A program made the translations under genes and the position numbers. The notes under the pieces are model-generated. The model was not told the origin of the DNA and made no database searches. It saw nothing but the letters and a program-made list of their open reading frames with translations. 64,000 bases of DNA from Minisyncoccota bacterium (GTDB lineage Bacteria > Patescibacteriota > Minisyncoccia > Phycocordibacterales > GWA1-40-21). Of the stretch, positions 1 to 50,802 are shown piece by piece (position 1 is the first letter of the stretch; each line of letters starts with the position of its first letter). The DNA lies in NCBI GenBank assembly GCA_041663045.1, contig JBAZRH010000002.1:193946-257945 (forward strand), written 5' to 3'.

Positions 1-679
1 AATCAATCGAATCCAAAATAACACCATCTTTCTTAAGTTTGCCAGTAAAATCAACTATTGAGTCAAGATTTTTCTCCCACATATCAATAAAAGTATTCTG
101 GGAAAGAAGATGGTTGTGAATTCCAAGCTTGATTTTATTTTTTTTACGTAAAATATTAAGCTTATCAAAAATTGGCATCACCTCAGAAATATGAAAGCCT
201 AAAAAAGAATCTGAGCTATAAGGTAATTCAGCATTGGAAACTTTAACTCCAGTATTAATACGAACTAAAACTTCAAGAAAGGCACCAATGGCTATATCTT
301 CAAGCAAAATCTCAAGTTGCTGAATAGAATCTACACTAAAACGGCTAACACCAAATTGACGAATCTTTTTATATTGTTCCCTAGTTAAACTTGGTGATTG
401 AAAGATGATTTTATCCTTTTTATAACCTTTCTTGATTGCAACTTTTTCTAGTTCTTCGACTGAAGAAATTAATAAACTACAACCCTCAGCTAAAATCACT
501 TCTAAAATCCCATCCTCGGGATTAGTCTTATGAGAATAGGCGATCTCACCTATAAGTGAGAATTTAACTTCTTTGATCAAATCAATTAAACTGACTTTAT
601 CAACAACAAAACAAGGGGTCTGATTTTGCCATATGTCTTTATTTTTATTTAAGAAACTAATTACAGTATTTTTATCCAT
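1..679 (-). CDS. PLP-dependent decarboxylase, Orn/DAP/Arg decarboxylase family (N-terminal part; gene runs off window start)
   Basis: Absent from the ORF track because it is truncated by the window edge. Minus-strand translation from ATG (complement 677-679) reads MDKNTVISFLNKNKDIWQNQTPCFVVDKVSLIDLIKEVKFSLIGEIAYSHKTNPEDGILEVILAEGCSLLISSVEELEKVAIKKGYKKDKIIFQSPSLTREQ..., resembling the N-terminal TIM-barrel region of fold-III decarboxylases. Confidence 0.5.
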   Translation of the reverse strand, partial: MDKNTVISFLNKNKDIWQNQTPCFVVDKVSLIDLIKEVKFSLIGEIAYSHKTNPEDGILEVILAEGCSLLISSVEELEKVAIKKGYKKDKIIFQSPSLTREQYKKIRQFGVSRFSVDSIQQLEILLEDIAIGAFLEVLVRINTGVKVSNAELPYSSDSFLGFHISEVMPIFDKLNILRKKNKIKLGIHNHLLSQNTFIDMWEKNLDSIVDFTGKLKKDGVILDSID

Positions 680-756
680 TTGTTAAGTATTCAAAACCCT
701 TTATAAAACGCCCTGATATTGTATCATATTACGCCGTAAAAGCAAGTAAAAATGGC

Positions 757-1668
757 CTAAATACCAATAAAATAGGTTCCTATAATAATCAGCCCGATGC
801 CAATGATCTTTTGTAGTATATTCTTCTTTGAAATAGATTCTTGGCTTATATTGGGGAAAAATATTGTAAGGGCAACTCCAATAACAAAGACAAAAAGTGG
901 TTGGAATGAGCTAACTAAAAGAACGAGAACTAATGGGGCCAGTAAAATTGCATATTGGGTAACAGATTCCGCAACGATAAATAGTGTTTCACTTAATGAA
1001 TTCAGACCAAGGACAGCTATCTTATTTTCTTTAATCATTTCCATAAATTGGAAACGATACGATTTTATAAATACAAAGAAAATCACCCCTAATATTATTT
1101 TACCTATTAATGACCAAAATGTGGATAACCAGAAACCATTATCCAGAGCAATCAATTTGAAGATAGCCCCATTGACGGCAAAAAGAATAGACGCCGTTAT
1201 CATAAGTAAGACTACTTCTTTTTTGAATCTTATCTTTTCTCCTCCTATTTCAAAAGATAGGATAGTTGCTCCAAAAATAATAACTAAAGAAGCTATTATT
1301 TGAATAGTTGATATTGTTTCTCCTAGAATGAAATAACCTAGGATAAAACCAAAAATTGGTATCGTTTGGTAAAAAGGCACAACGTAGGAGGCCTCATCTT
1401 TTTGCAGAGCATAGAAATAACAAAGGATAGCCAAGACAACAAGCATGCCATTTATAGCCAAAACTATTCCGTGAATAAGACTGACATTAAATACACTCGG
1501 ATGAAAAAATAGAACAATGGGTAAAGCAACAACACTAAATATAGAAGAAAAGATAATAAGTGAACCAACAGCCCCACCTTTTAAGTATTTTGTAATAAGA
1601 TACTTATCGGTGTGATTAGCTACTGCATTTAATATGGGGCCTATTAGTGCTATAAGAAACCAGTTCAT
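757..1668 (-). CDS. DMT-superfamily (EamA-like) membrane transporter
   Basis: 303 aa, about 10 predicted TM helices, duplicated 5-TM architecture. Confidence 0.6.
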   Translation of the reverse strand: MNWFLIALIGPILNAVANHTDKYLITKYLKGGAVGSLIIFSSIFSVVALPIVLFFHPSVFNVSLIHGIVLAINGMLVVLAILCYFYALQKDEASYVVPFYQTIPIFGFILGYFILGETISTIQIIASLVIIFGATILSFEIGGEKIRFKKEVVLLMITASILFAVNGAIFKLIALDNGFWLSTFWSLIGKIILGVIFFVFIKSYRFQFMEMIKENKIAVLGLNSLSETLFIVAESVTQYAILLAPLVLVLLVSSFQPLFVFVIGVALTIFFPNISQESISKKNILQKIIGIGLIIIGTYFIGI

Positions 1669-22228: not shown

Positions 22229-22231
22229 TTG

Positions 22232-22297
22232 TCGGGGCGCAGGGATTTGAACCCTGACTATCCGCCTCAGGCGGAGATATTACCTATAATCACACCG
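22232..22297 (-). pseudogene. degenerate tRNA-like copy; its 3' 30 nt are identical to the tRNA-Pro 3' part
   Basis: 66 nt. T-arm and acceptor 3' strand (TAGTCAGGGTTCAAATCCCTGCGCCCCGA) are identical to tRNA-Pro. The 5' acceptor strand CGGTGTG still pairs, but the anticodon arm is a 6-bp stem with a 3-nt loop (TCCGCC-TGA-GGCGGA). Confidence 0.55.
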
Positions 22298-22318
22298 ATA
22301 CCTTTTCTATCTTTATGG

Positions 22319-22389
22319 TCGGGGCGCAGGGATTTGAACCCTGACTACATGCTCCCAAAGCATGGATGCTACCGTTACACCACGCCCCG
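22319..22389 (-). tRNA. tRNA-Pro (anticodon UGG)
   Basis: Acceptor CGGGGCG/CGCCCCG, D-stem GTGT/GCAT, anticodon stem CATGC/GCATG with loop TTTGGGA, T-arm CAGGGTTCAAATCCCTG. Confidence 0.85.
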
Positions 22390-24131: not shown

Positions 24132-24523
24132 TAGATGAATTTTAGCAGATATTTTGATAAAAAGAAAAGCGCACTTCCCGGAGGTCATGCGCGATTGGAG
24201 AATGAAACACATCAGAGGCACTTCAGTGTGTTAGGAAGTGAAGGATTGCAATCCCCACAATAAACAGAAACACAATCGAAAATGCTTTGACGTTGTCTCG
24301 GTTGGTCAGGAAGAGATATATTCTCGACTTAAAGAACTCTTCTTCTGCGTGATGCTGTTCGTTCTGTACGTGCGTAAACGGAGGTGTCGGAGGCATTTTG
24401 TCCAGTCCTTTCTTAATGTGCTTTTTTCACAGTGTGATTACTGTAAAAATCATCAACTTTGATAACTAATTAATAATATCAGCCTTTAGACAATATGTCA
24501 AACTAACTCATATTTTTATTTTG

Positions 24524-24595
24524 TGCGCTCGGCAGGACTCGAACCCGCAACAACAGTTCCGAAGACTGTTGTGATATCCATTTCACCACGAGCGC
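24524..24595 (-). tRNA. tRNA-Arg (anticodon UCG)
   Basis: Acceptor GCGCTCG/CGAGCGC, D-stem GTGA/TCAC, anticodon stem ACAGT/ACTGT with loop CTTCGGA, T-arm GCGGGTTCGAGTCCTGC. Confidence 0.85.
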
Positions 24596-24756
24596 AATAT
24601 TAAACTCCCCCATTAGGATTCGGTCACGACTTTTGCTCGGCCGTCGCCATCGCAAAGTCTCGACCCCGACTCGCTTCCAATCCTGCTGGCTTAGGGCCCG
24701 CTCCGTCCTTTAAATCTTTCGCAAGTAAAGACTTTTACTTGCTTTCTAAGATTTAA
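24596..24756 (-). repeat. GC-rich tRNA-associated structured element (family member)
   Basis: In tRNA orientation it contains GGAAGCGAGTCGGGGTCGAGAC, a stem-loop CTTTTGC-GATGGCGACGGCCGAG-CAAAAG, and ends GTGACCGAATCCTAATGGGGGAG; G+C far above flanks. Confidence 0.6.
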
Positions 24757-24809
24757 ACCCACAACAACAGTTCCGAAGACTGTTGTGATATCCATTTCAC
24801 CATGGGAGC
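24757..24809 (-). pseudogene. partial tRNA copy: D-arm and anticodon arm identical to tRNA-Arg(UCG), with a different 5' acceptor strand and no T-arm
   Basis: 41 nt identical to the tRNA-Arg body; acceptor 5' strand GCTCCCA. The element's terminal AATGGGGGAG could pair with it. Confidence 0.55.
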
Positions 24810-24896
24810 ATTTCATCATAATACGCTAAATTGGCTAAAAATCAAAAAACAATTTTGTTTTTTTATAAAATTGTGTATAATACAAAAAGTAAATTT

Positions 24897-24967
24897 GCGG
24901 GCGTAGTTTAATGGTAGAACTAGTCCTTGCCAAGGATTGGGTTCGGGTCCGATTCCCGACGCCCGCA
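24897..24967 (+). tRNA. tRNA-Gly (anticodon GCC)
   Basis: Acceptor GCGGGCG/CGCCCGC, anticodon stem AGTCC/GGATT with loop TTGCCAA, T-arm TCGGGTCCGATTCCCGA; TATAAT at 24876-24881 upstream. Confidence 0.85.
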
Positions 24968-25017
24968 CACATAGCAAAAAAGCGCGTAACTGCGCTTTTT
25001 TGCTATGTGTGCGGGCG
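24960..25017 (+). terminator. 26-bp perfect inverted repeat incorporating the tRNA-Gly acceptor 3' strand
   Basis: CGCCCGCACACATAGCAAAAAAGCGC-GTAACT-GCGCTTTTTTGCTATGTGTGCGGGCG. Confidence 0.6.
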
Positions 25018-26494: not shown

Positions 26495-27265
26495 TTATTT
26501 TTCTTTTGCAGGTGTAGAAATTTTCCAAATATTTTCAAATTGTAATTTCATCAGGTCGGAAAAATCTTTTGAATGGACGACAAAACCAAATCCTTCTTTT
26601 TCGGAAGAAAGAAAAGCGACTTTGTCTTCATACAGCCAATAACCCATATTCCATGTCATACCAACCGGTGCAAAGCGCAAGTCGCGCAGAGTATCCTCGC
26701 CACTTTTCAAATATGGATATTGCTCGGTATCCAAGACTTTATCACTCGGCCATATCGCACGCAAAAAAATATTTCTTTTTACTCTCTTTTCATTTAAATC
26801 TCTTAAATATTCCGGTCCAAGCACTTTCATCATTTCACTCATTGGCCAAAATAGGACTGTTTCTATATCTCTATTTAGCATTATTGTGTTCAAGACTTGT
26901 CTCATACCCTCCTTTCCTGAATAAAACTTAATCTGTGGCTCTACAAAAGCCACTTTTTGCAATAAAGAGGGAAGCGAGAGCTCAAATTGCTTTTTCTCAT
27001 TCTCCAAAGATTTGATTTTGTCGGCTAGCATTTCCTGAATATTCCGCACATTATCAATCTGAAATACTTTCTTATACTCCTCCTTTCTTTCTGTTACCAA
27101 GCCGTGTTTTATCAATATTTTAAGATGATCATACACAGATGGGCGGGGAATACCCACTCTATCTGCCAATTTACTAGCAGGCGTCGCTCCATTTGCCACC
27201 AAGTCATTGAAGACTTTTTGTGTGATTTCAGACAAACCAAGTTCTTGAAATACTTTTGTAAACAT
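26495..27265 (-). CDS. TrmB-like transcriptional regulator
   Basis: N-terminal wHTH ASKLADRVGIPRPSVYDHLKILIKHGLVTE. Confidence 0.55.
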   Translation of the reverse strand: MFTKVFQELGLSEITQKVFNDLVANGATPASKLADRVGIPRPSVYDHLKILIKHGLVTERKEEYKKVFQIDNVRNIQEMLADKIKSLENEKKQFELSLPSLLQKVAFVEPQIKFYSGKEGMRQVLNTIMLNRDIETVLFWPMSEMMKVLGPEYLRDLNEKRVKRNIFLRAIWPSDKVLDTEQYPYLKSGEDTLRDLRFAPVGMTWNMGYWLYEDKVAFLSSEKEGFGFVVHSKDFSDLMKLQFENIWKISTPAKEK

Positions 27266-27428
27266 TTCTTTAACTTTATTATATGTCTAATTATATACCT
27301 CTATTTATCTTTGTCGAGATTCGACGACAGCTTTACATTACTAGACAAAGGTGCTATATTGTTGTCAGATGATTAAGGTAGTAGGAATTCAAACGAATTT
27401 CGCCTTGATTATAGGTCTTTGAAAGGAA

Positions 27429-27863
27429 GTGAGTATGAATTATGGAATGATCGCGATCATACTGTTCGTCATTCTGTGCCCGTGCATTAGCTACATTATT
27501 ATAAAGAATAAGATGCATATCTGGGACGGCGGATTGATGCTGGTTATAAAAGATGGTGAAGACAAACAGACTATAGTCCCATTGAATTGTAATAAATTCA
27601 ATGAAGTGGACTTGAAGAAAGAGACGGTGGTATTGGGTTTGTTTATTCCAGGTGGAGATAGCCACTACATTCCGAGTGTACTGTTTCGTGACATTAAAGT
27701 CACATTTGAACTGAACGATGGACTATTCTGTTATTCAGTTGAGAACACAGACGCCGGATTATATCTCATGCTTCATAAGCCAATGGATCATAGATATCGA
27801 ACAGTAGCTCTTGATGTGTGGCGGATGGATTATTCGGTTACCATTCTGTTCAATCGGAGATAG
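27429..27863 (+). CDS. hypothetical protein with N-terminal TM helix
   Basis: 144 aa; hydrophobic N-terminus, then a soluble domain. Confidence 0.4.
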   Translation: MSMNYGMIAIILFVILCPCISYIIIKNKMHIWDGGLMLVIKDGEDKQTIVPLNCNKFNEVDLKKETVVLGLFIPGGDSHYIPSVLFRDIKVTFELNDGLFCYSVENTDAGLYLMLHKPMDHRYRTVALDVWRMDYSVTILFNRR

Positions 27864-27895
27864 GGCGAAACTCTTGGGGAAAGACTTCAAATTTC

Positions 27896-27990
27896 CCCTT
27901 CTTATCAAACTCATCACTAAAACAAAAAGTGGTAAGTTTGTAGGAAGATATAGGGTCTTCTTAAACAGGTTCTTTGAGAAAGGGAAAAAC
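27896..27990 (+). promoter_or_regulatory. conserved structured 5' leader, copy 1 of 3 (Shine-Dalgarno-sequestering hairpin)
   Basis: ~95 nt aligned with the copies at 28221..28316 and 36451..36548: CTCATCAC/GTGGTAAG stem, GGAAG/CTTC stem, and TTCTTT/AAAGGG covering the Shine-Dalgarno sequence; preceded by a terminator-like hairpin at 27876..27898. Confidence 0.5.
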
Positions 27991-28170
27991 ATGAATATGT
28001 ATTTTGTTTTACCTGGTTTGGTTACCTTCATTCCCGGGCTTCTCATTTCTGTGGGCGCTTTGGGCGATCCTTCGAATAAGAAAATAGGTTTGGTCGGAAT
28101 TGTTCTAGTTCTGGTTGGGGTATCACTTGCCTCAATTGGCTCTGCATCATCTACAATGATATTAAAGTAG
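27991..28170 (+). CDS. small membrane protein (two TM helices)
   Basis: The internal ATG of track ORF 27811..28170 sits right after leader copy 1: MNMYFVLPGLVTFIPGLLISVGALGD... Confidence 0.4.
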   Translation: MNMYFVLPGLVTFIPGLLISVGALGDPSNKKIGLVGIVLVLVGVSLASIGSASSTMILK

Positions 28171-28220
28171 TTGACTGCAGTACTTCGGGCAACCGCTTCG
28201 CCCCACAAGCGAAACGGTTG

Positions 28221-28316
28221 CCCTTCTTATCAAATTCATCACTAACAAAAATGTGGTGAGTTTGTAGGAAGGCAAAACGCTTTTCTAAACGAGTTCTTTG
28301 AGAAAAGGAGAAAGTT
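28221..28316 (+). promoter_or_regulatory. conserved structured 5' leader, copy 2 of 3
   Basis: CCCTTCTTATCAAATTCATCACTAACAAAAATGTGGTGAGTTTGTAGGAAGG...TTCTTTGAGAAAAGGAGAAAGTT-ATG; preceded by a hairpin at 28187..28223. Confidence 0.5.
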
Positions 28317-28787
28317 ATGTGGCAATTCATATCCGCAGTGTTGTTCGTGGTGGCGACCTCGATGATCAGTCACTATCTGGTCAAAAAAAGCCTGACCCCG
28401 TGGAATGGTGAGATGTTTTTGATTTCGAATTACCATGAGCAAAAGCTAGGAATAGTCAGTCGGTTGACTGAAGAACATGGAGGAAAAATATTTAGTGACA
28501 AAGTTGTCACTCCTACGGGTTTTCACAGAGATATCTGTCTACCCGAAGCGACCATTATTAACTCTCTTATGTTTAGTGAGTCTACCTGTGAAAAGATGCC
28601 TTTTATTCGTATAGCTTTAAAGAAAGGGTCTGTAATCACTTCTGTGGGTTGGCGCATTGCGGTCAGTATTGACGAAGTGGACATGTGTTTTGAAGAGCCT
28701 GTTGATGGAAGTAAGTTTGATTGCCTCTGTGTGATTATGGAATCTCAACTAAACAAAAGGGTTTACACAATTAATTTCAACGCATAA
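28317..28787 (+). CDS. hypothetical protein with N-terminal TM helix
   Basis: 156 aa; architecture resembles 27429..27863. Confidence 0.4.
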   Translation: MWQFISAVLFVVATSMISHYLVKKSLTPWNGEMFLISNYHEQKLGIVSRLTEEHGGKIFSDKVVTPTGFHRDICLPEATIINSLMFSESTCEKMPFIRIALKKGSVITSVGWRIAVSIDEVDMCFEEPVDGSKFDCLCVIMESQLNKRVYTINFNA

Positions 28788-28956
28788 CCTATTCCTTGCA
28801 ATATGTGTTTATAGATGTTGATACTCAATAAATCGGGCGGGGTTTGCGAAGCAAACCCCGCCTTTTCTTTTGTATTTCCAACATCTTTCTGGTATTTGCA
28901 TCCTATATTATCATATGATAATATAGGATATGTTAGTAATTTAATATATATAAAAT

Positions 28957-29178
28957 ATGAGTACAATATCTGTTCCACTTCCTGCAAAATTGGAAGAAAA
29001 ACTGAATAATCTTGTGAAGTCTGGATATGGTTCAAACAAAGCCGACGCTGTTCGCCGAGCTATTTTAAGTGCATCGGAAGAAGAGGCGATACAGGATGTC
29101 TTGCAAGCGCAGCATGAAATAGCTATGGGCAAAGGGTTGCACGGAGATTTAAGAGAATTAGCAAAAAGATTCAAATAA
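28957..29178 (+). CDS. type II antitoxin, ParD/RHH family
   Basis: 73 aa; N-terminal beta-strand then ..KADAVRRAIL, typical of ribbon-helix-helix antitoxins; a toxin gene follows 1 nt downstream. Confidence 0.55.
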   Translation: MSTISVPLPAKLEEKLNNLVKSGYGSNKADAVRRAILSASEEEAIQDVLQAQHEIAMGKGLHGDLRELAKRFK

Positions 29179-29179
29179 A

Positions 29180-29440
29180 ATGCTAAATCTTATTTATGCA
29201 CCGATTTTTGTAAAGAAATTTAATAAACTAGAGGAGAATTTACAGGATGAGGTGATTGAGAAAATAGAATTATTTAAAGATGCTCGAAATCACAAAATAC
29301 TGAAAGTCCATAAATTACACGGGCAATTCAAAAATTGTTATAGTTTTTCTGTAAATTATGAATTTCGAATCATTTTTTCCTATGCTTCTAAAAAAGATGT
29401 CGATATTTTGGCTATTGGAGGACACGATATATACAAATAA
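29180..29440 (+). CDS. type II toxin, RelE/ParE family
   Basis: 86 aa; YEFRIIFSYASKKDVDILAIGGHDIY matches the RelE/StbE C-terminal signature. Confidence 0.6.
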   Translation: MLNLIYAPIFVKKFNKLEENLQDEVIEKIELFKDARNHKILKVHKLHGQFKNCYSFSVNYEFRIIFSYASKKDVDILAIGGHDIYK

Positions 29441-32335: not shown

Positions 32336-33304
32336 TTATGATTTATTATGGAATTTTTTGTGAACATCCCGCAAGTGTTTATCCGTAACATGTGTGTAAA
32401 TTTGCGTCGTCGCGATATTTGAGTGGCCGAGCATAGCCTGGACAGAGCGAAGGTCGGCACCGTTTGAAAGCAAGTCCGTGGCAAAGCAATGGCGTATGAC
32501 ATGAGGCGTGACTTTCTTTGTTATTCCAGCTATTGTGGCGTATCTTTTTACAATTCTTTCAATTGTCCTACTAGTAAGACCACCATCCGGATCAGCTGCT
32601 GGTTTGCCTTTTATCTTTTCTTCAGCGACTTTTACAAATAAAGCATCAGACATGTCCTTGCGTAGAGCGAGATATTCTTTAATAGCGGATTTGGCTCCGT
32701 CTGATAAGAATACTACGCGTACTTTACCTCCTTTTCCGCGAATAGAAAATTCGTCCATCTTTATATCCAGATCATTTTTTAGTGAGCACAATTCAGAAAC
32801 ACGAAGGCCGGTGGAAAATAATAATTCTAAAATCGCATGTCCCCTTGCTTTTTTCTCCGGATTTTCTTCCTTATCTGGTGCGGTGAGTAAACGTTTTAAT
32901 TCAGTTTGAGAGATTACGTCTATTGATCTTTCGCCGACTTTAGCCAACTCAATATTATCTGCTGACAAGGAAGTGATACCGCGTCTAGTTAGGAATCTTA
33001 AGAATATGCGCAAAGCAATCAGATAATAATTCTGCGTTTTCTTGGTCATATTATCACTGACAAAAGTCTGATTGGAATTTCTTAGTGTCCCTCGAGTTTT
33101 TGCTCCAGGTCGGCGATTCAACCAAATACGAAATTCACGCACTTTTTCATTAGTAATATCTTTCGGATTTGTAACCTTACTTTGTTTGAAGAAGAGCGTT
33201 AGGTAACGATCATAGTTTTTTATAGTCTTCAACGCCCGTCCTCTTTCGATCTCAATATATTCAAGGAATTGAGTTTTTAGTTCTTGTAAATTCATGTCGC
33301 ACAA
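32336..33304 (-). CDS. tyrosine site-specific recombinase, XerC/XerD-like
   Basis: N-terminal SAM-like domain; catalytic-region R..HxxR..Y signatures RHCFATDLL, LGHSNIATTQIYTHV. Confidence 0.8.
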   Translation of the reverse strand: MCDMNLQELKTQFLEYIEIERGRALKTIKNYDRYLTLFFKQSKVTNPKDITNEKVREFRIWLNRRPGAKTRGTLRNSNQTFVSDNMTKKTQNYYLIALRIFLRFLTRRGITSLSADNIELAKVGERSIDVISQTELKRLLTAPDKEENPEKKARGHAILELLFSTGLRVSELCSLKNDLDIKMDEFSIRGKGGKVRVVFLSDGAKSAIKEYLALRKDMSDALFVKVAEEKIKGKPAADPDGGLTSRTIERIVKRYATIAGITKKVTPHVIRHCFATDLLSNGADLRSVQAMLGHSNIATTQIYTHVTDKHLRDVHKKFHNKS

Positions 33305-35255: not shown

Positions 35256-35367
35256 TTTAAACAAAAATCCGCCTCGAGCGGATTTTTGTTTATTTTATCG
35301 TGTTATAATGTAAGTAGGTCGGTATTATTAATTTTATAATAAAGAGCGGGGTAGTTGTATCGATTTA

Positions 35368-35464
35368 CCCCAGTGAAGTATCCGCCTATGGCGGAGAAAT
35401 CTTAAAAGATTTCACTTCACGGGGTGATGATTTTTATATTCACTTCGCTCATTAAAAATCAATC
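35368..35464 (+). promoter_or_regulatory. duplicated structured upstream module (copy 1), abutting the NYN gene start
   Basis: CCCCAGTGAAG...CTTCACGGGG stem, then TGATGATTTTTATATTCACTTCGCTCATTAAAAATCAATC-ATG; the 3' 47 nt are identical to 43829..43875 apart from two a/g swaps. Confidence 0.5.
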
Positions 35465-35989
35465 ATGTCAGTAATAAAACACAAAAATCAGAGAGTTGGG
35501 ATTTTTATAGATACACAAAATTTATATCATTCAGCTAAGAATCTGTATGGAGCCAAGGTCAACTTCGGCCAAGTCGTCAAAGACGCATTGGATGGAAGAG
35601 TTTTGATCAGAGCGACAGCATATGTCATCACCACAGAATCTGGAGACGAGAAAAGCTTTTTCGAAGCTCTTGGTAAGGTTGGTATCACGACAAAGACAAA
35701 AAATCTACAGATTTTCCCCGGTGGAGCCAAGAAAGCAGACTGGGATGTCGGTATGGCGATAGATGCTATATCACTTTCAGCAAAAGTGGATGCAGTGGTC
35801 TTGATCACAGGCGACGGAGACTTTATTCCGCTTGTAGAATATTTGAAAATCAAACAAGGATGCCAAGTGGAAGTAGTTTCCTTTGGTAAATCAACATCAG
35901 CCAAGCTCATAGAAGCCGTAGATGGCTTTATGGATTTGGATGTAAATCCGAGAAAATATTTGCTAGGGACGGGAGGGGGGAAGAGGTAG
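35465..35989 (+). CDS. NYN-domain (LabA-like, PIN-fold) protein
   Basis: RVGIFIDTQNLY...VVLITGDGDF. Confidence 0.75.
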   Translation: MSVIKHKNQRVGIFIDTQNLYHSAKNLYGAKVNFGQVVKDALDGRVLIRATAYVITTESGDEKSFFEALGKVGITTKTKNLQIFPGGAKKADWDVGMAIDAISLSAKVDAVVLITGDGDFIPLVEYLKIKQGCQVEVVSFGKSTSAKLIEAVDGFMDLDVNPRKYLLGTGGGKR

Positions 35990-36057: not shown

Positions 36058-36450
36058 TTATGGAGTATTTGTTCCCCTTATAATTTTTTGTGGTACTATC
36101 AAAACCATACTTACTCCTCTTGGACCTGGAAATCTAGGATTACACACGAACCAAAATCTCTTGTGAAAGGTCATCTCCTCATCACAATGACTATAGATAC
36201 CTTTTGGTAGATTTCTATTGCCGAACAGTATTATGTATTTACCACTGCCAATCAAACCAATAGTAGCAAATGATCTCTTGGTGCCGAATGCCGATGAATT
36301 TCGACGGATTATCGAGAGATAACTACCGCTACATGGATCGAGATTTATACTAATGAGTTTTTGCCTGACCTCTTTGACTCCATGCATAATCTTCTCAAAA
36401 TTAACAAGATAAAATACTTTTCTGCCAAATCGATATTTTATTTTTTTCAT
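36058..36450 (-). CDS. hypothetical protein
   Basis: 130 aa, immediately downstream of leader copy 3. Confidence 0.4.
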   Translation of the reverse strand: MKKIKYRFGRKVFYLVNFEKIMHGVKEVRQKLISINLDPCSGSYLSIIRRNSSAFGTKRSFATIGLIGSGKYIILFGNRNLPKGIYSHCDEEMTFHKRFWFVCNPRFPGPRGVSMVLIVPQKIIRGTNTP

Positions 36451-36548
36451 TTTTTCTCCTTTTGTTAAAGAACATTTAGAAAAGTCCTATACTTTCCTAC
36501 AAACTCACCACTTTTTTGTTTTAGTGATGAGTTTGATGAGAAGGGGAA
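36451..36548 (-). promoter_or_regulatory. conserved structured 5' leader, copy 3 of 3 (minus strand)
   Basis: Reverse complement CCCCTTCTCATCAAACTCATCACTAAAACAAAAAAGTGGTGAGTTTGTAGGAAAG...TTCTTTAACAAAAGGAGAAAAA-ATG; preceded by a hairpin at 36543..36563. Confidence 0.5.
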
Positions 36549-36585
36549 CCACAGGCGTTCCCCGAAGTGAAACTCGGCTGATGTG

Positions 36586-37143
36586 TTATCCACGGAAGTA
36601 GTGCCTTTCAAGCTCCTTCCCATACTTCCATACTTTGCATAGAACATCCAAAGCGCATTTAAACTCTAATCCAGATATCGTCTCGGTGTCAACCTTATGA
36701 CTGGCCCATCCTGCAATTCTGCTCAACTTTTTGCCTTCTCCTATTTTAATCTCCATGATCTGCGCCCATCTGGAGGCAAAGCGAAGCATTCCCATCATCT
36801 CTCTTTTATTTGTTTCGACGATTTCTGCCCAAAGATTCTTGTTACGAACTTTGAATGGTACAATGCCTTGTGCAATGGCTTTCCTCTTGAGCCTTAAGTA
36901 TTTTCTGTCCTCAGCTTTTTCCTTGAGGATTTCTGCTCTCCCTTCCGGAGATCTTCCCCATTCTTTTTCATAGTTTCTCACTATGGATTTAACACTACTA
37001 CCTTTTGGGTGAGCAGTAACAATGATTCCATTGAACCTTATACAGACAGAGTTATTGAGCTTTTTTGCCCTCCCAATCATCTTTCTTGCTAGAGAATATA
37101 GATTGTCTCCATAATCGCAGAAACCCCTCTTGAGATGTCTCAT
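36586..37143 (-). CDS. hypothetical protein
   Basis: 185 aa; translationally coupled (ATGA overlap) to the upstream small Cys-rich ORF. Confidence 0.45.
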   Translation of the reverse strand: MRHLKRGFCDYGDNLYSLARKMIGRAKKLNNSVCIRFNGIIVTAHPKGSSVKSIVRNYEKEWGRSPEGRAEILKEKAEDRKYLRLKRKAIAQGIVPFKVRNKNLWAEIVETNKREMMGMLRFASRWAQIMEIKIGEGKKLSRIAGWASHKVDTETISGLEFKCALDVLCKVWKYGKELERHYFRG

Positions 37144-37504: not shown

Positions 37505-38269
37505 ATGGAAAATAATCATTACATTGAGATATTGAAGGAAATCGGGCTATCAGAGCATGAAAGTGCAGTGTATTTTACTATGGTTTCCCTTGGTCCTTCA
37601 CCAGTGCTTAAGATCGCCAGAACTTCAGATGTAAAAAGGACTACAATCTATTCGGTTATTGATTCATTGAAAGAGAAGGGTCTTGTCAGGGTAGAACTGA
37701 AAGGTTTCAAAAGTCTTTTTGTTGCCGAAAGTCCGGAAAAGCTGGAGGGAATACTTGAACAGAGAAAAAATAAATTCAAAAAGCATTTGCTCGACTTTAT
37801 GCAGATTTATAATAAAGGTGGTGGCGAGTCTCTTATCAAAATCTATGAAGGACTTGAAGCGGTGAAGGGGGTATACGAGAGTTTGATAAATGATATAAAA
37901 AATGGAGAAGATTATCTGATTGTATCCGATGCAGAGAAATGGTTTGCACTTGATAGAGATTATTTTATGGATTTTACCGAAAGGAGATCTAAATTACCGA
38001 TAAAGATAAGAATGCTTATTCAAGATAATGAAGATGCTCAATATTTAAAAAAATATCAGAAAAATTTTAACTATACGACGAGGATTTTGCCAAAAGAGAC
38101 AAAACTCACGACGAATTTGATCGTAACTCCGCAAAAAGCCGTGGTGCACCAGCTCGTTCCGCCGATAATGGCTATTGTGATTGAAAATAAAAATATTATC
38201 AAAATGCATCAAGAGATGTTTGAGGTGATGTGGAAGTCGCTCGAAGATAAGGAAAGTGTGGGGGATTAG
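37505..38269 (+). CDS. TrmB-like transcriptional regulator
   Basis: wHTH ILKEIGLSEHESAVYFTMVSLGPSPVLKIARTSDVKRTTIYSVIDSLKEKGLV. Confidence 0.55.
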   Translation: MENNHYIEILKEIGLSEHESAVYFTMVSLGPSPVLKIARTSDVKRTTIYSVIDSLKEKGLVRVELKGFKSLFVAESPEKLEGILEQRKNKFKKHLLDFMQIYNKGGGESLIKIYEGLEAVKGVYESLINDIKNGEDYLIVSDAEKWFALDRDYFMDFTERRSKLPIKIRMLIQDNEDAQYLKKYQKNFNYTTRILPKETKLTTNLIVTPQKAVVHQLVPPIMAIVIENKNIIKMHQEMFEVMWKSLEDKESVGD

Positions 38270-38397: not shown

Positions 38398-38667
38398 ATG
38401 ACTACAACAGTTCAAATAAGAATAGATGACAAAATAAAAAAGGAAATTCACAAACTTTATAAAAGTCTTGGTTTAGATATTTCTTCTGCTACGAAGATGT
38501 TTTATAGTCAGTCTTTGATGATGAAGGGTATTCCTTTTCAACCAAGAACCGCGAATGGTTTTACTCCTGAATATGAGGCTAGGATTATAAAGGAAACTGA
38601 ATGGGCAGAAAAACATGGTAAAAGATACAAAACTGTTGAGGAAATGTTTAAAGCATTAAATAAATAA
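38398..38667 (+). CDS. dinJ: type II antitoxin, RelB/DinJ family
   Basis: 89 aa; VQIRIDDKIKKEIHKLYKSLGLDISSATKMF. Confidence 0.6.
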   Translation: MTTTVQIRIDDKIKKEIHKLYKSLGLDISSATKMFYSQSLMMKGIPFQPRTANGFTPEYEARIIKETEWAEKHGKRYKTVEEMFKALNK

Positions 38668-38668
38668 T

Positions 38669-38947
38669 ATGCTCGAACTAGTATTTTCTAGACAGTATAA
38701 AAAGGCTTTCAAGAAAGTTATGAGATCAGGGAATTTCGACAAAGATAAATTAATGATATTAGTGGGGATATTAATGAAAGAGGAAAAATTAGATGAAAAA
38801 TACAAAGATCATGCACTAAATGGACCGCTTTCGGAGTACAGGGATTGTCATGTCTGTAATGATTTAATCTTAATATACAAAGTTAATAAAACTCTGGGGA
38901 CACTAACCCTTTCAAATATCGGCAGTCATTCGGATTTGTTTGAATAG
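38669..38947 (+). CDS. yafQ: type II toxin, YafQ family (RelE-like mRNA interferase)
   Basis: 92 aa; YKDHALNGPLSEYRDCHV..DLILIY collinear with YafQ; gene 1 nt after the dinJ stop. Confidence 0.65.
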   Translation: MLELVFSRQYKKAFKKVMRSGNFDKDKLMILVGILMKEEKLDEKYKDHALNGPLSEYRDCHVCNDLILIYKVNKTLGTLTLSNIGSHSDLFE

Positions 38948-43767: not shown

Positions 43768-43795
43768 TTTAATTGAAGCGGATTTATCCGATCAA

Positions 43796-43875
43796 CCCCA
43801 GTGAAATATGCCATCTACGTCGGCATTTCACGGGGTGATGATTTTTATATTCGCTTCACTCATTAAAAATCAATC
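43796..43875 (+). promoter_or_regulatory. duplicated structured upstream module (copy 2), abutting the comM/yifB start
   Basis: CCCCA-GTGAAAT-AT-GCC...GGC-ATTTCAC-GGGG hairpin then TGATGATTTTTATATTCGCTTCACTCATTAAAAATCAATC-ATG. Confidence 0.5.
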
Positions 43876-45477
43876 ATGTCCTTTGCAAAAACTTTTAGCG
43901 CACAGACCGTCGGTTTGGGTGCAGAAATTATTGATGTAGAAGTTGATTTATCAAAAGGTTTACACTCCTTCTCTATTGTGGGCCTCGGAGATAAAGCAGT
44001 AGAAGAGTCACGTGATAGAGTTTCGGCTTCTATTAAAAATTGCGGTTACAAATCTCCTAAAAATAAGAATCAGAAAGTTGTTGTTTCACTAGCTCCAGCA
44101 GATGTTCGCAAAGAAGGTCCGGCTTTTGACGTAGCCATATCACTTGCATACCTTTTGGCGGATGGGGAGATCAAATTTGATTCAAAGAAGAAACTTTTTC
44201 TTGGCGAGCTTTCTCTTGATGGCAAACTTAGGAAAATAAATGGCGTTTTGCCGATTGTGGCAGAGGCAAAAAGGCGAGGTTTTGAGGAGGTCTTTTTGCC
44301 AAAAGAGAATACAAAAGAAGCAGCGCTAGTCTCTGATATAAATATTTATGGTGCAGAAAATCTGGGGCAGATAATCGGCCACTTGGATGAAGGCGATGCT
44401 CCAAGAAAAGGGAAGTCAAGAGAAATTGACCCAGAGACTTTTGAAGCAGAAGATGAATTTATTTCGCAGAAAATAAATCCAGAACCGCAGACAGAGATTC
44501 TCGTAGAAGAAGACGAAGCTATAATAGATTTTAGTGAAATCAAAGGTCAGGAAACTGCCAAAAGAGGGCTTGAAATAGCCGCCGCTGGCGGACACAATAT
44601 CGCTATGTATGGGCCACCGGGGACAGGCAAGACAATGCTTGCAAAAGCATTTAGTCATATTCTTCCACCACTTTCTTTCGATGAAATACTGGAGATAACA
44701 GCCATACATTCTGTGTCTGGAAATCTGAAAAAAGATATTATTTCGAAACCTCCCGTCCGCGCACCACATCATACCTCTTCTTATGTTTCACTTGTCGGTG
44801 GAGGCACAGTGCCAAAGCCTGGGGAGGTGACACTTGCTCATGGCGGAGTGCTTTTCTTGGATGAATTTCCAGAATTTGATAGGAAAGTTATTGAAGCACT
44901 CCGTGAACCACTTGAAGAAGGGGAGATCACTATCTCTCGTGCCCGAGGTTCACATGCTTTCCCTGCCAATTTTATTCTCATCGCCGCCATGAATCCGTGC
45001 CCTTGTGGAAACTTTGGCTCAAAGACAAAAGAGTGTATTTGTAAGCCGACAGATTTGCTTCGATATCAGAGGAAAATCTCTGGGCCGATAGTGGACAGAA
45101 TAGATATGTGGGTGGAAGTCTCGCAGATAAATTATGAAAAGCTCGGTGAGAAAGAAAATATTAAAAAAGAGACGGCCGATATAAAAAAGAGGGTGACAAA
45201 AGCGAGAGAAATCCAAAAAGAGAGATTTACTGCTGGAAAGAGAAAAATTCGCACAAATAGCGAAATGGAAGCCAAAGATATTTTGAAACTTGCCGACTTG
45301 GAAGACAAAGCTAAAGGTATTTTAATTTCTTCCGCAAGAAAGCTAGATCTTTCTGCTCGTGCATATCACAGGGTTATAAAACTCGCGAGAACCATTGCTG
45401 ATCTTGAAGGGAGTGAAAGTATAAAGACAAATCATATCTTGGAGGCGTTGCAGTATAGGCCGAAGAGGAATCAATAA
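43876..45477 (+). CDS. comM: Mg-chelatase-like AAA+ ATPase YifB/ComM
   Basis: N-terminal Lon-like domain, Walker A GPPGTGKTML, C-terminal Mg-chelatase region. Confidence 0.85.
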   Translation: MSFAKTFSAQTVGLGAEIIDVEVDLSKGLHSFSIVGLGDKAVEESRDRVSASIKNCGYKSPKNKNQKVVVSLAPADVRKEGPAFDVAISLAYLLADGEIKFDSKKKLFLGELSLDGKLRKINGVLPIVAEAKRRGFEEVFLPKENTKEAALVSDINIYGAENLGQIIGHLDEGDAPRKGKSREIDPETFEAEDEFISQKINPEPQTEILVEEDEAIIDFSEIKGQETAKRGLEIAAAGGHNIAMYGPPGTGKTMLAKAFSHILPPLSFDEILEITAIHSVSGNLKKDIISKPPVRAPHHTSSYVSLVGGGTVPKPGEVTLAHGGVLFLDEFPEFDRKVIEALREPLEEGEITISRARGSHAFPANFILIAAMNPCPCGNFGSKTKECICKPTDLLRYQRKISGPIVDRIDMWVEVSQINYEKLGEKENIKKETADIKKRVTKAREIQKERFTAGKRKIRTNSEMEAKDILKLADLEDKAKGILISSARKLDLSARAYHRVIKLARTIADLEGSESIKTNHILEALQYRPKRNQ

Positions 45478-50476: not shown

Positions 50477-50563
50477 GGAAGAGTGGCTGAGTGGTTTAAA
50501 GCACCGGTCTTGAAAACCGGAGGGCTCGCAAGGGTCCCGTGAGTTCGAATCTCACCTCTTCCG
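50477..50563 (+). tRNA. tRNA-Ser (anticodon UGA), long variable arm
   Basis: Acceptor GGAAGAG/CTCTTCC, anticodon stem CCGGT/ACCGG with loop CTTGAAA, variable arm GGGCTCGCAAGGGTCCC, T-arm GTGAGTTCGAATCTCAC. Confidence 0.85.
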
Positions 50564-50584
50564 CATTAACAAAAAATGCCGATA

Positions 50585-50777
50585 ATAAATATCGGTATTT
50601 TTTGTTAACTATGCGAAAGCTTGCCGAGATTCGAACGGCGGAGCACACGGAGCGAAGCGGAGTCTGTCGCGAGCACGCGACAGGCACGAGCCGGTGCCCA
50701 ACCCGAATCCGAGCGACGGCGAGGATGAGAGGTGCGGGCGAATCTCACCTCTTCCGCATTAACAAAAAATGCCGATA
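50585..50777 (+). repeat. GC-rich tRNA-trailing element ending in an exact 38-nt copy of the tRNA-Ser 3' end plus terminator
   Basis: Direct repeat GAATCTCACCTCTTCCGCATTAACAAAAAATGCCGATA at 50547..50584 and 50740..50777. Interior contains antisense GAGATTCGAAC, hairpins CTGTCGCG-AGCA-CGCGACAG and GGCAC-GAGCCG-GTGCC, and ATCC-GAGCGACGGCGAG-GGAT. Confidence 0.65.
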
Positions 50778-50802
50778 TTTATTATCGGTGTTTTTTGTTT
50801 TG

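Follow-up and report, generated by a model that had tools for sequence, protein, structure and literature searches.

Why one folded sequence should precede several unrelated small genes is the question raised by a stretch of 64,000 nucleotides from a Minisyncoccota bacterium (assembly GCA_041663045.1, contig JBAZRH010000002.1, positions 193,946 to 257,945), which is hereafter called the window. An earlier inspection of the letters (the sequence-only reading) had located in it three copies of a structured leader that would sequester the Shine-Dalgarno (SD) sequence, and had proposed either a cis-regulatory RNA, such as a riboswitch, or a mobile promoter cassette. The analysis presented here has revealed that the element is a folded RNA module of roughly 115-130 nt, a repeated family with three covarying hairpins (P0, P1 and P2), and the best-supported reading is that it constitutes a new family of structured intercistronic mRNA elements.

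A repeated module with three covarying hairpins

A covariance model (R1), built from 12 copies after the initial repeat detection, was run over the window with filters off. It recovered the three copies where they had been placed, with scores of 110.5 bits for copy A (27876-27993, plus strand), 109.7 bits for copy B (28187-28317, plus strand) and 110.8 bits for copy C (36449-36563, minus strand); the runner-up in the 64 kb reached 15 bits (E = 0.36), so that the window holds exactly three copies. Pattern searches and repeat finding also gave these three copies and no further ones, and the repeat finding together with a 38-mer search against 100 shuffles set the chance expectation of repeats at zero. 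In single-sequence folds the copies were more stable than shuffled sequences (z = -3.6 to -4.7). According to the scores and the folds, the whole modules extend over 27876..27993 (+), 28187..28319 (+) and 36448..36563 (-). The unit had been described as about 95 nt long and starting after a GC hairpin; the repeat is confirmed, and the boundary has to be moved, since the R1 spans take in this hairpin (P0), which is a conserved and covarying part of the unit. A fourth, partial copy considered at 27384-27438, in the 5' untranslated region of a gene for a 144-aa protein, was discarded because its 9.5 bits are noise and it is not conserved in the related contig L013.

On the sense strand, from 5' to 3', the module opens with a short pyrimidine-rich stretch followed by P0, a GC-rich hairpin of 19-40 nt with the base GGGNAA/UUNCCC. 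It occurs in several sequence classes that recur across different genomes, with energies of -7 to -26 kcal/mol and with covariation (27876-27898 in copy A, 28187-28223 in copy B and 36563-36543 in copy C). An invariant pyrimidine block, B1 (CCCUUCUUAUCAA), lies between P0 and P1 (27899-27905, UUCUUAU, in copy A; 28224-28230 in copy B; 36542-36536, UUCUCAU, in copy C). P1 is a hairpin of 10-14 bp with an A-rich loop (27906-27917 / 27929-27940 with loop 27918-27928 in copy A; 28231-28242 / 28253-28264 in copy B; 36535-36524 / 36511-36500 in copy C), and 3' of it stands an invariant purine block, B2 (UUUGUAGGAA). B2 is itself the 5' strand of P2, a 9-bp helix that is missing or replaced in some copies and that holds a 35-nt insertion in contig L020 (5' and 3' strands at 27941-27949 and 27955-27963 in copy A, 28265-28273 and 28279-28287 in copy B, 36499-36491 and 36485-36477 in copy C). 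P2 is followed by UAAAY, a third block, B3 (GUUCUUUGA or GUUCUUUAA), the SD sequence and the AUG codon. In copy A these last three are found at 27969-27978 (B3, GUUCUUUGAG), 27980-27984 (AAGGG) and 27991; in copy B at 28293-28302, 28306-28310 (AGGAG) and 28317; and in copy C at 36473-36464, 36460-36456 (AGGAG) and 36450-36448. From the CCC ending P0 to the AUG there are 88-96 nt in the 12 typical copies, the set used for the energy, spacing and structure-blind alignment statistics, and 71-118 nt in the atypical ones.

Both helices of the sequence-only reading exist with a greater length: P1, given as 8 bp, has 12 bp (CAAACTCATCAC/GTGGTGAGTTTG), and P2, given as GGAAGR/CTTTTC, has 9 bp (UAGGAAGNN/NNCUUUUCUA). 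Its third helix (P3, UUCUUU/AAAGGA) is predicted in several copies, is very weak and competes with other anti-SD strands; as both of its strands are invariant, covariation cannot be assessed there. Three other interpretations of parts of the module were rejected. A small upstream open reading frame (ORF) starting from AAAUG after P2 lacks its ATG in copies A and B; no tRNA-like structure is found at the element sites by ARAGORN or Rfam; and of a CsrA-type double GGA site only the GGA matches, located in helices instead of loops.

The helices are maintained by compensatory changes, which are abundant in P1 and P2. In the structure-blind MAFFT alignment of the 12 typical copies (A2), 96.9% of the cells are paired, compared with 46-57% when the partners are slid by 1-3 columns, and the double-changed pairs number 8 against 0-1 in the slid controls. 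In the model-guided alignment of 24 distinct copies (A3), 95.7% of the cells are paired and double changes are found in 17 of the 27 pairs (4/6 in P0, 9/12 in P1 and 4/9 in P2), and the observed values were reached by none of 500 shuffles. The inner stem of P1 has a wholly different sequence (UAAUUAUC/GAUAGUUG) in copy G (L013 8751) and in L020, where it is nevertheless paired. Among the mismatches, G·U pairs far exceed A·C pairs (45 versus 6 in P1, 26 versus 3 in P2), and therefore the fold is read on the sense strand. The folding of this strand and the fixed sense orientation of the element point to RNA, although strictly they would also fit the non-template DNA strand. The earlier attribution of the conservation to a structured RNA, and not to a gene family, is upheld.

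Distribution and position between cistrons

The search of metagenomic contigs with R1 and a second covariance model (R2) yielded 28-29 matches, corresponding to 24-27 distinct sequences, the relatives contributing about 20 distinct copies beyond the three of the window, and the pattern CCCTTCTYATCAAR-N18-34-TTTGTAGGAA, whose blocks are invariant in 7 copies, was found at 15 loci of JGI metagenomes. Orthologues of the TrmB-like regulator that neighbours the element are numerous (77-90% identity for TrmB-like regulator 1), and one of 89% identity led to contigs with two further copies at the same operon position. The only homologue of the 156-aa protein encoded downstream of copy B (63% identity) comes from ENA contigs in which one element precedes its gene and another follows it. 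At the loci of more distant orthologues of regulator 1 (L012, L016, L032-L034; 71-86% protein identity) the canonical element was not found, L012 having one diverged match of 33 bits; because of this, the element is confined to a subclade of the Paceibacteria, which are bacteria of the Candidate Phyla Radiation (CPR). The Logan contigs L006 and L007 belong to the same organism and add no diversity.

No Rfam family was matched at threshold. The Rfam 15 gathering-threshold scan of the window gave tRNAs only, and the E-value scans (E <= 10) of the element and five related loci gave only generic miRNA-hairpin models, with 12-24 bits against thresholds of 50-180. Plasmid and phage records contained no similarity to the element, and as far as the searches found it is undescribed in the searchable literature. 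Strict DNA patterns were of little use: GTGGTRAGTTTGTAGGAA gave four chance matches in viral contigs, TCATCACN{8,14}GTGGTRAGTTTGTAGG gave one chance match in genome contigs (a metagenome-assembled genome, MAG, of Burkholderiales), both patterns being too strict, and a similar strict pattern gave zero matches in metagenome contigs. Exact-protein look-ups with PNPase and the 59-aa peptide encoded after copy A returned nothing.

In all of the about 20 distinct contexts the element lies between two co-directional ORFs and is sense to both, with the upstream stop codon mostly 9-16 nt ahead of P0. At least seven loci have it between genes 1 and 2 of an operon divergent from a TrmB-like gene, and at some loci a second copy is present between genes 2 and 3. 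Three different groups of TrmB orthologues stand next to element loci.

Within the window, TrmB-like regulator 1 (26495..27265, minus strand; Pfam PF01978, 7e-13) is divergent from the operon that contains copies A and B. The promoter of this operon, a sigma-70-like TTTACA-N17-TATATT with TG (27332..27360, +), is located between the regulator gene and gene 1 and is conserved in L013. Gene 1 (27429..27863, +; probable ATG at 27435) encodes the 144-aa protein, with an N-terminal transmembrane (TM) segment, and ends 12 nt before P0 of copy A. After copy A follows the gene of the 59-aa two-TM peptide (27991..28170, +), whose stop codon is 16 nt before P0 of copy B, and after copy B the 156-aa gene (28317..28787, +; NCBI hypothetical protein WC631_03285, from a Candidatus Paceibacterota MAG), with a canonical intrinsic terminator and U tract at 28835-28863 (+). 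Copy C is preceded by the gene of a 185-aa protein with a Tad4-like domain (37143-36586, -), overlapped by a 59-aa ORF (37319-37140, -), and is followed by a 130-aa gene (36058..36450, -) and then by a terminator hairpin at about 36050-36021 with a U7 tract. TrmB-like regulator 2 (37505..38269, +), which is 23% identical to regulator 1, is divergent from the copy C operon. The proteins encoded downstream of the three copies (59, 156 and 130 aa) have no detectable mutual homology, as the sequence-only reading had maintained; there is weak paralogy, however, between the 156-aa protein and the 144-aa protein encoded upstream of copy A. Taken over the loci, the downstream genes encode small TM peptides, a radical SAM enzyme, a BtpA-family protein and, mostly, proteins of unassigned function.

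The order of genes and copies is 144aa-[A]-59aa-[B]-156aa in the window and 89aa-[F]-220aa-[G]-88aa in L013, and L028 contains an array of four. The latter (566-1613, minus strand) packs four modules, two of them diverged, into about 1 kb between very small ORFs (23-99 aa); one of the diverged modules has a canonical terminator followed by a perfect TTGACA-N17-TATGAT in a P1-like hairpin. Canonical terminators with U6-U7 tracts are found only after the last gene of the operons. The tail of P0 is the interrupted tract UUCUUAUC, with U at 5 of 8 positions; the operon-end terminators of the same genomes have U6-U7. Hairpins of the P0 class (GGGCAAGAA…UUCUUGCCC) also act as operon-end terminators with long U tracts in L018 (6413-6360) and L023 (597-550), so P0 and ordinary terminators are related. 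Another hairpin of this class stands at an operon end in L023 (4775-4740), with the weaker tail UUGUUAAC.

The sequence-only reading had called the element a leader and had allowed for a mobile promoter cassette, and neither a leader at a transcript start nor such a cassette agrees with these data. The contexts all lie between co-directional genes, after a terminator-like hairpin, and the operon promoter is upstream of gene 1. A scan with the sigma-70 consensus detected no site inside copies A and B, and in copy C only a 9/12 site that overlaps the start codon. The best shared candidate, TTGTAG-N17-CTAAAY, matches 3/6 and 3/6 positions and is variable at its critical last base, and no -35/-10 hexamers 16-18 bp apart occur at a conserved position of the element. 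The spacing of the conserved blocks varies with the length of the hairpin (from 23 to 35 nt and more), and is therefore incompatible with a -35/-10 geometry. Other promoters within the element, including an ECF-like GGAAC…TCAAA in P0/B1, were rejected for a spacing that is inconsistent among the P0 classes. Since P0, P1 and P2 all covary, they must be transcribed together, so that transcription comes in from gene 1. As the element lies strictly between cistrons and no promoter of fixed spacing was found in it, it is an intercistronic RNA and not a promoter cassette or a 5' leader.

A DNA-level variant of the cassette would have P0 ending gene 1, the inverted repeat of P1 (TCATCAC-N10-GTGGTGA) serving as a TrmB-like operator and an inner promoter driving gene 2. 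It would account for the terminator-like character of P0, for the TrmB-like gene near every well-resolved locus and for the perfect sigma-70 promoter in the P1-like hairpin of one diverged copy; archaeal TrmBL1 sites (TATCAC-N5-GTGATA), which we take to resemble the half-sites of P1, would also suit it. This variant is quite unlikely, however, because, besides the lack of a -35/-10 pair of conserved position or spacing (block distance 23 to 35 nt and more), the sequence of P1 is free to vary while its pairing is kept, with G·U and not A·C mismatches (45 vs 6), which is wrong for a palindromic protein site. In addition, an identical P1 sequence adjoins TrmB paralogues of only 23% identity, and P2, located beyond any such promoter position, covaries too. 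The association with TrmB may be incidental, because TrmB genes are very dense (up to six in 16 kb). In the relatives L016, L032 and an ERZ1426827 contig, TrmB-like regulators are expanded, each being divergent with a periplasmic-binding-protein gene (Peripla_BP_6), with up to 6-8 of these pairs in 16-20 kb.

Alternative pairings and a proposed switch at the SD sequence

B1 (CUUCUUA) is complementary to B2 (UAGGAAG), and when both blocks pair P1 reaches a length of 18-19 bp; the extended helix has one bulged U as well as two U·G pairs, which are conserved in 24/26 and 24/25 sequences. This pairing excludes P2, because P2 uses the same B2. According to the fold predictions, when B1:B2 is formed the 3' strand of P2 (CUUUUCUA) pairs with the SD region, and when P2 is formed only B3, or a long-range pairing with B1, still holds the SD sequence. 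The two folds lie within -2.9 to +3.5 kcal/mol in 12/12 typical copies, and the predicted minimum flips between copies. Signs of selection are found in both mutually exclusive helices: the top three pairs of P2 covary, and pairing of the P1 extension is kept by double changes in diverged copies, such as UC/GA to CU/AG in L028:1324, the extension being also paired in L028:566 and L028:902, whose sequences are quite different. Sequestration of the SD sequence, as claimed by the sequence-only reading, is predicted in nearly all copies (SD unpaired 0.04-0.43), although the accessibility is not statistically distinctive: in the two copies compared with the other genes of the window it was 0.04 and 0.30 versus a median of 0.5, a difference that is only suggestive given the crude control set.

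Given the near-equal energies of the two folds, the best model places a bistable switch of SD access behind a leaky terminator or 3' stabiliser. Transcription would start at the operon promoter adjacent to the TrmB-like gene and proceed through gene 1, and P0 with its interrupted U tract would operate as a leaky intrinsic terminator and/or as a stabiliser of the 3' end of the upstream cistron. The read-through RNA would then behave as a four-segment switch made up of B1 (segment 1), B2 (segment 2), the 3' strand of P2 (segment 3) and the SD region (segment 4). Pairing 1:2 would form the 18-19-bp P1 hairpin with its bulged U and free segment 3 for the SD region, lowering translation; pairing 2:3 would form P2 and leave the SD sequence held only by the weak, U-rich B3, raising translation. 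The most economical guesses for the trigger are endonucleolytic processing, by RNase III in the long P1 helix or by cleavage in B1, or else recognition by a protein of the invariant helix, including the bulged U and both conserved U·G pairs. Leaky termination, the assignment of the ON and OFF states and the trigger are what we infer. The element probably sets the amount of the downstream gene product, and the chances that it does so as a cis-acting structured RNA of polycistronic mRNAs, with P0 as leaky terminator or 3' stabiliser and a bistable switch gating the downstream SD sequence, are considered evenly balanced.

Another proposal is a passive intercistronic stabiliser and processing site, comparable to the REP of malE-malF or to the RNase III sites of phage T7, in which nothing switches and the alternative pairings are incidental. 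P0 could be a barrier to 3' exonucleases, the long P1 a substrate of RNase III and P2 the 5' hairpin of the downstream fragment, and PNPase and RNase Y are encoded in the window. Such a site would need neither the strict invariance of B1, B2 and B3 nor the U·G pairs (24/26, 24/25) or the bulged U, and both exclusive helices bear marks of selection; the passive site is regarded as a somewhat unlikely explanation.

A metabolite riboswitch or an RNA thermometer acting on the downstream SD sequence, which the sequence-only reading had listed among its options, is very unlikely. The bistable pairings do resemble an expression platform, conserved joining strands stand between variable stems, and U-rich strands pair with the SD sequence as in fourU thermometers. 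Nevertheless, the conserved nucleotides are complementary pyrimidine and purine tracts and not a junction or ligand pocket, Rfam gave no match beyond generic hairpin models even at E <= 10, the position is intercistronic, and the P3 hairpin is very weak and invariant. The downstream genes share no function, for which reason a classical riboswitch is unlikely.

Several considerations weigh against the switch model. Because B1, B2, B3 and the SD sequence are nearly invariant in typical copies, pairings 1:2 and 3:4 rest on a few diverged copies and on thermodynamic prediction, and since all copies have a common ancestry, their near-equal energies do not count as independent observations. Apparent conservation is inflated by the close relationship of the copies and by concerted evolution, the model-guided alignment A3 leans to structure, and the pairings of diverged copies come from model-fitted alignments. 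The accessibility of the SD sequence lies within the range of the other genes of the window and is not exceptional. With three pyrimidine blocks and two purine blocks, some pairing of the SD sequence is predicted in both states, so that the ON state would be only relatively open. For read-through of P0 the only basis is that P1 and P2, which lie beyond it, covary. Finally, the perfect TTGACA-N17-TATGAT inside the P1-like hairpin of the diverged copy at L028 902-1021 may indicate promoter activity in some relatives.

Gene exchange at the element and its likeness to known systems

Orthologous loci align only in the regulator gene with its promoter, in the element and in a downstream conserved gene, and the ORFs that flank the element are unrelated. 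Between the window and L013 the identity is 80% in the TrmB gene and promoter region, 81% in the element and 67% in the downstream conserved gene; for the window and L022 the values are 82% in the element and 70% in the neighbouring TrmB gene; and L018 and L023 share a 124-nt island of 98% identity amid unrelated genes. The latter two comparisons also speak for constraint on the element. The copies within the window genome are 87-89% alike, compared with 72-76% to their positional orthologues, which is therefore taken as concerted evolution. The element marks recombination breakpoints where genes have been swapped between strains, and homologous recombination between repeats of about 100 nt at 80-98% identity is sufficient to explain these mosaics.

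The same observations could suggest a mobile or recombinogenic DNA repeat, REP/MITE-like or attC-like, that folds in single-stranded DNA (ssDNA), is conserved through recognition by a transposase or recombinase and itself causes the gene swaps. The flanking genes are replaced at orthologous loci with breakpoints at the edges of the element, which stays; the invariant ends B1 and B2 make up an imperfect inverted repeat, and the paired core that they enclose is variable and has an extrahelical base; and copies within a genome are homogenised. A tyrosine recombinase, the only one near the element, is encoded about 4 kb away in conserved synteny (32336-33304); XerD-type models give it 227-228 bits and the TIGR02249 integron integrase model 122 bits, against a cutoff of 265, and it is thus Xer-like (XerC/D) and not IntI. 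Against such a repeat, every copy is sense to its flanking genes, there are only 3 copies in 64 kb, and the conserved unit reaches past the palindrome to P0, P2, B3 and the SD sequence, P2 covarying independently. Neither target-site duplications, nor a GTAG 5' of the hairpin on either strand, nor RYYYAAC/GTTRRRY cores were present, the recombinase remains below the integron-integrase cutoff, and ordinary homologous recombination would suffice for the mosaics. Inspection of the flanks and the plasmid and phage records gave no match or signature of an insertion sequence or MITE, and the mobile repeat is considered unlikely. Highly improbable is a more specific form of it, in which the element would be the junction of an integron-like cassette-exchange system of CPR bacteria, with an ssDNA hairpin read by the Xer-type recombinase and a terminator and ribosome-binding site (RBS) given to the cassettes.

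The window is part of a bacterial chromosome, with genes for PNPase, RNase Y, the CCA-adding enzyme, RecJ, ComM and a copper ATPase (CopA) and with 11 tRNAs; a phage origin was rejected in view of these genes and of the absence of a phage match. The orientation of genes and tRNAs switches from minus to plus at about 24.85 kb, between a tRNA-Arg (24739-24810, -) and a tRNA-Gly (24897-24968, +), the cumulative GC skew has its minimum at about 24-34 kb, and the region at about 24.8 kb is probably that of the replication origin. From the flip and the skew minimum it follows that copies A/B and C are on the same side of this probable origin and on opposite strands, all being sense to their own genes.

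Other features of the window were also recorded. The 185-aa protein (36586-37143, -) matches, in its C-terminal part, the Thoeris inhibitor Tad4 of Pfam (PF25186, 5.4e-16), a domain not expected on a CPR chromosome. Two type II toxin-antitoxin pairs border the variable operons, at 28957-29440 (a 73-aa ORF and a RelE/HigB-like toxin) and at 38398-38947 (RelB and a YafQ-like protein). A second, unrelated repeated upstream region is present at 35363-35469 and 43790-43880, with its last 57 nt, including the ATG, 95% identical; it carries the inverted repeat ACCCCAGTGAA…TTCACGGGGT and precedes unrelated genes, one with an NYN domain (35465-35989) and one ComM/Mg-chelatase-like (43876-45477). The 3' end of tRNA-Ser(TGA) is duplicated together with a terminator-like palindrome (50539-50606 and, 193 nt downstream, 50732-50799; 90% identity), which an integration or excision scar could explain; the end of tRNA-Pro has a 30-nt exact duplicate 87 nt from the gene (22231-22260 / 22318-22347), and two tRNA-Arg(TCG) genes are in tandem (24523-24595 / 24739-24810).

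Post-transcriptional control in the Candidate Phyla Radiation is, to our knowledge, almost unexplored. The element is a compact, strongly covarying and apparently bistable mRNA structure common to unrelated accessory genes, and it coincides with gene-replacement breakpoints at hypervariable loci next to TrmB regulators. Should the switch be real, a post-transcriptional regulon would exist, implying a trans-acting factor or a processing step in very small genomes; should the recombination aspect be real, it would help to account for the shuffling of small membrane and accessory genes in these episymbionts. The covariance model is ready for the annotation of such junctions in metagenomes.

Among the systems described previously, the intercistronic REP sequences of enterobacteria, such as those of malE-malF and hisJ-hisQ, are repeated GC hairpins within operons that affect the stability of the upstream mRNA and differential expression, and they have been linked to recombination (PMC3184786, PMC3479197). 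REP sequences have a 5' GTAG, occur in both orientations, in BIME pairs and in hundreds of copies, and are mobilised by RAYT transposases (PMC3479197). The element is similar to REP/BIME in being made up of short, imperfect, GC-containing hairpins, repeated and transcribed between cistrons. Unlike REP, it is always sense, lacks the 5' GTAG, has two further hairpins and an RBS, and is low-copy in the window: its about 20 distinct copies are all single and sense to the flanking genes, with 3 in 64 kb, and the GTAG head is not found at the foot of the hairpin, where the 5' flank is CUUCUUAU in sense and UUCCUAC in antisense, GUAGG being 3' of the hairpin. The Correia (CREE/NEMIS) sequences of Neisseria and the ERIC sequences are intergenic elements of 100-150 nt, co-transcribed, with long hairpins that can be bound or cleaved by RNase III, and they alter adjacent expression (PMC2649163). 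CREE belong to the MITEs: they bear terminal inverted repeats and TA duplications, insert in either orientation and are able to create promoters. In the element neither duplications nor variation of orientation nor a promoter could be found; the unit has no direct repeats at its sides, and its upstream flanks differ (…CUCUU|GGGG, …UUC|GGGG).

As for integrons, the element shares with attC sites structured repeats between unrelated, co-oriented and promoterless small genes, with gene exchange at the repeat, and indeed the gene content of such arrays varies at orthologous TrmB loci. In both, moreover, the conserved ends are mutually paired, the paired core is variable, a base is extrahelical and the folding is specific to one strand. 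Unlike attC, its helix base has neither R'' (RYYYAAC) nor R' (GTTRRRY) cores on either strand of alignment A3, the ends being CUUCUUAUCAA and UUUGUAGGAAG, there is no IntI, the repeat holds an RBS and a terminator-like hairpin, and the arrays are of 1-4 units beside a TrmB regulator. The element fails the defining tests of the REP, Correia/ERIC and attC families.

With attenuators and expression platforms (1:2 / 2:3 / 3:4, as in ermC) the element has in common exclusive helices that decide whether an anti-SD strand is free, and with fourU thermometers U-rich strands that pair with AGGA; it differs from attenuators, riboswitches and fourU in having no leader peptide, no aptamer-like pocket and no shared downstream function, and in being intercistronic. 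The early-region RNase III processing sites of phage T7 and the RNase III-activated translation of E. coli adhE and lambda N offer a further parallel, with intercistronic hairpins of about 20 bp that have internal bulges; once these are cut, the upstream RNA keeps a 3' hairpin and the downstream RBS can become accessible. They have no sequence relation to the element, whose helix of 18-19 bp, with one bulged U and two U·G pairs, would be a candidate for such cleavage. By analogy of function, the closest relatives would be the intercistronic REP and the Correia/ERIC sequences (PMC3184786, PMC2649163, PMC3479197), together with the RNase III sites of T7.

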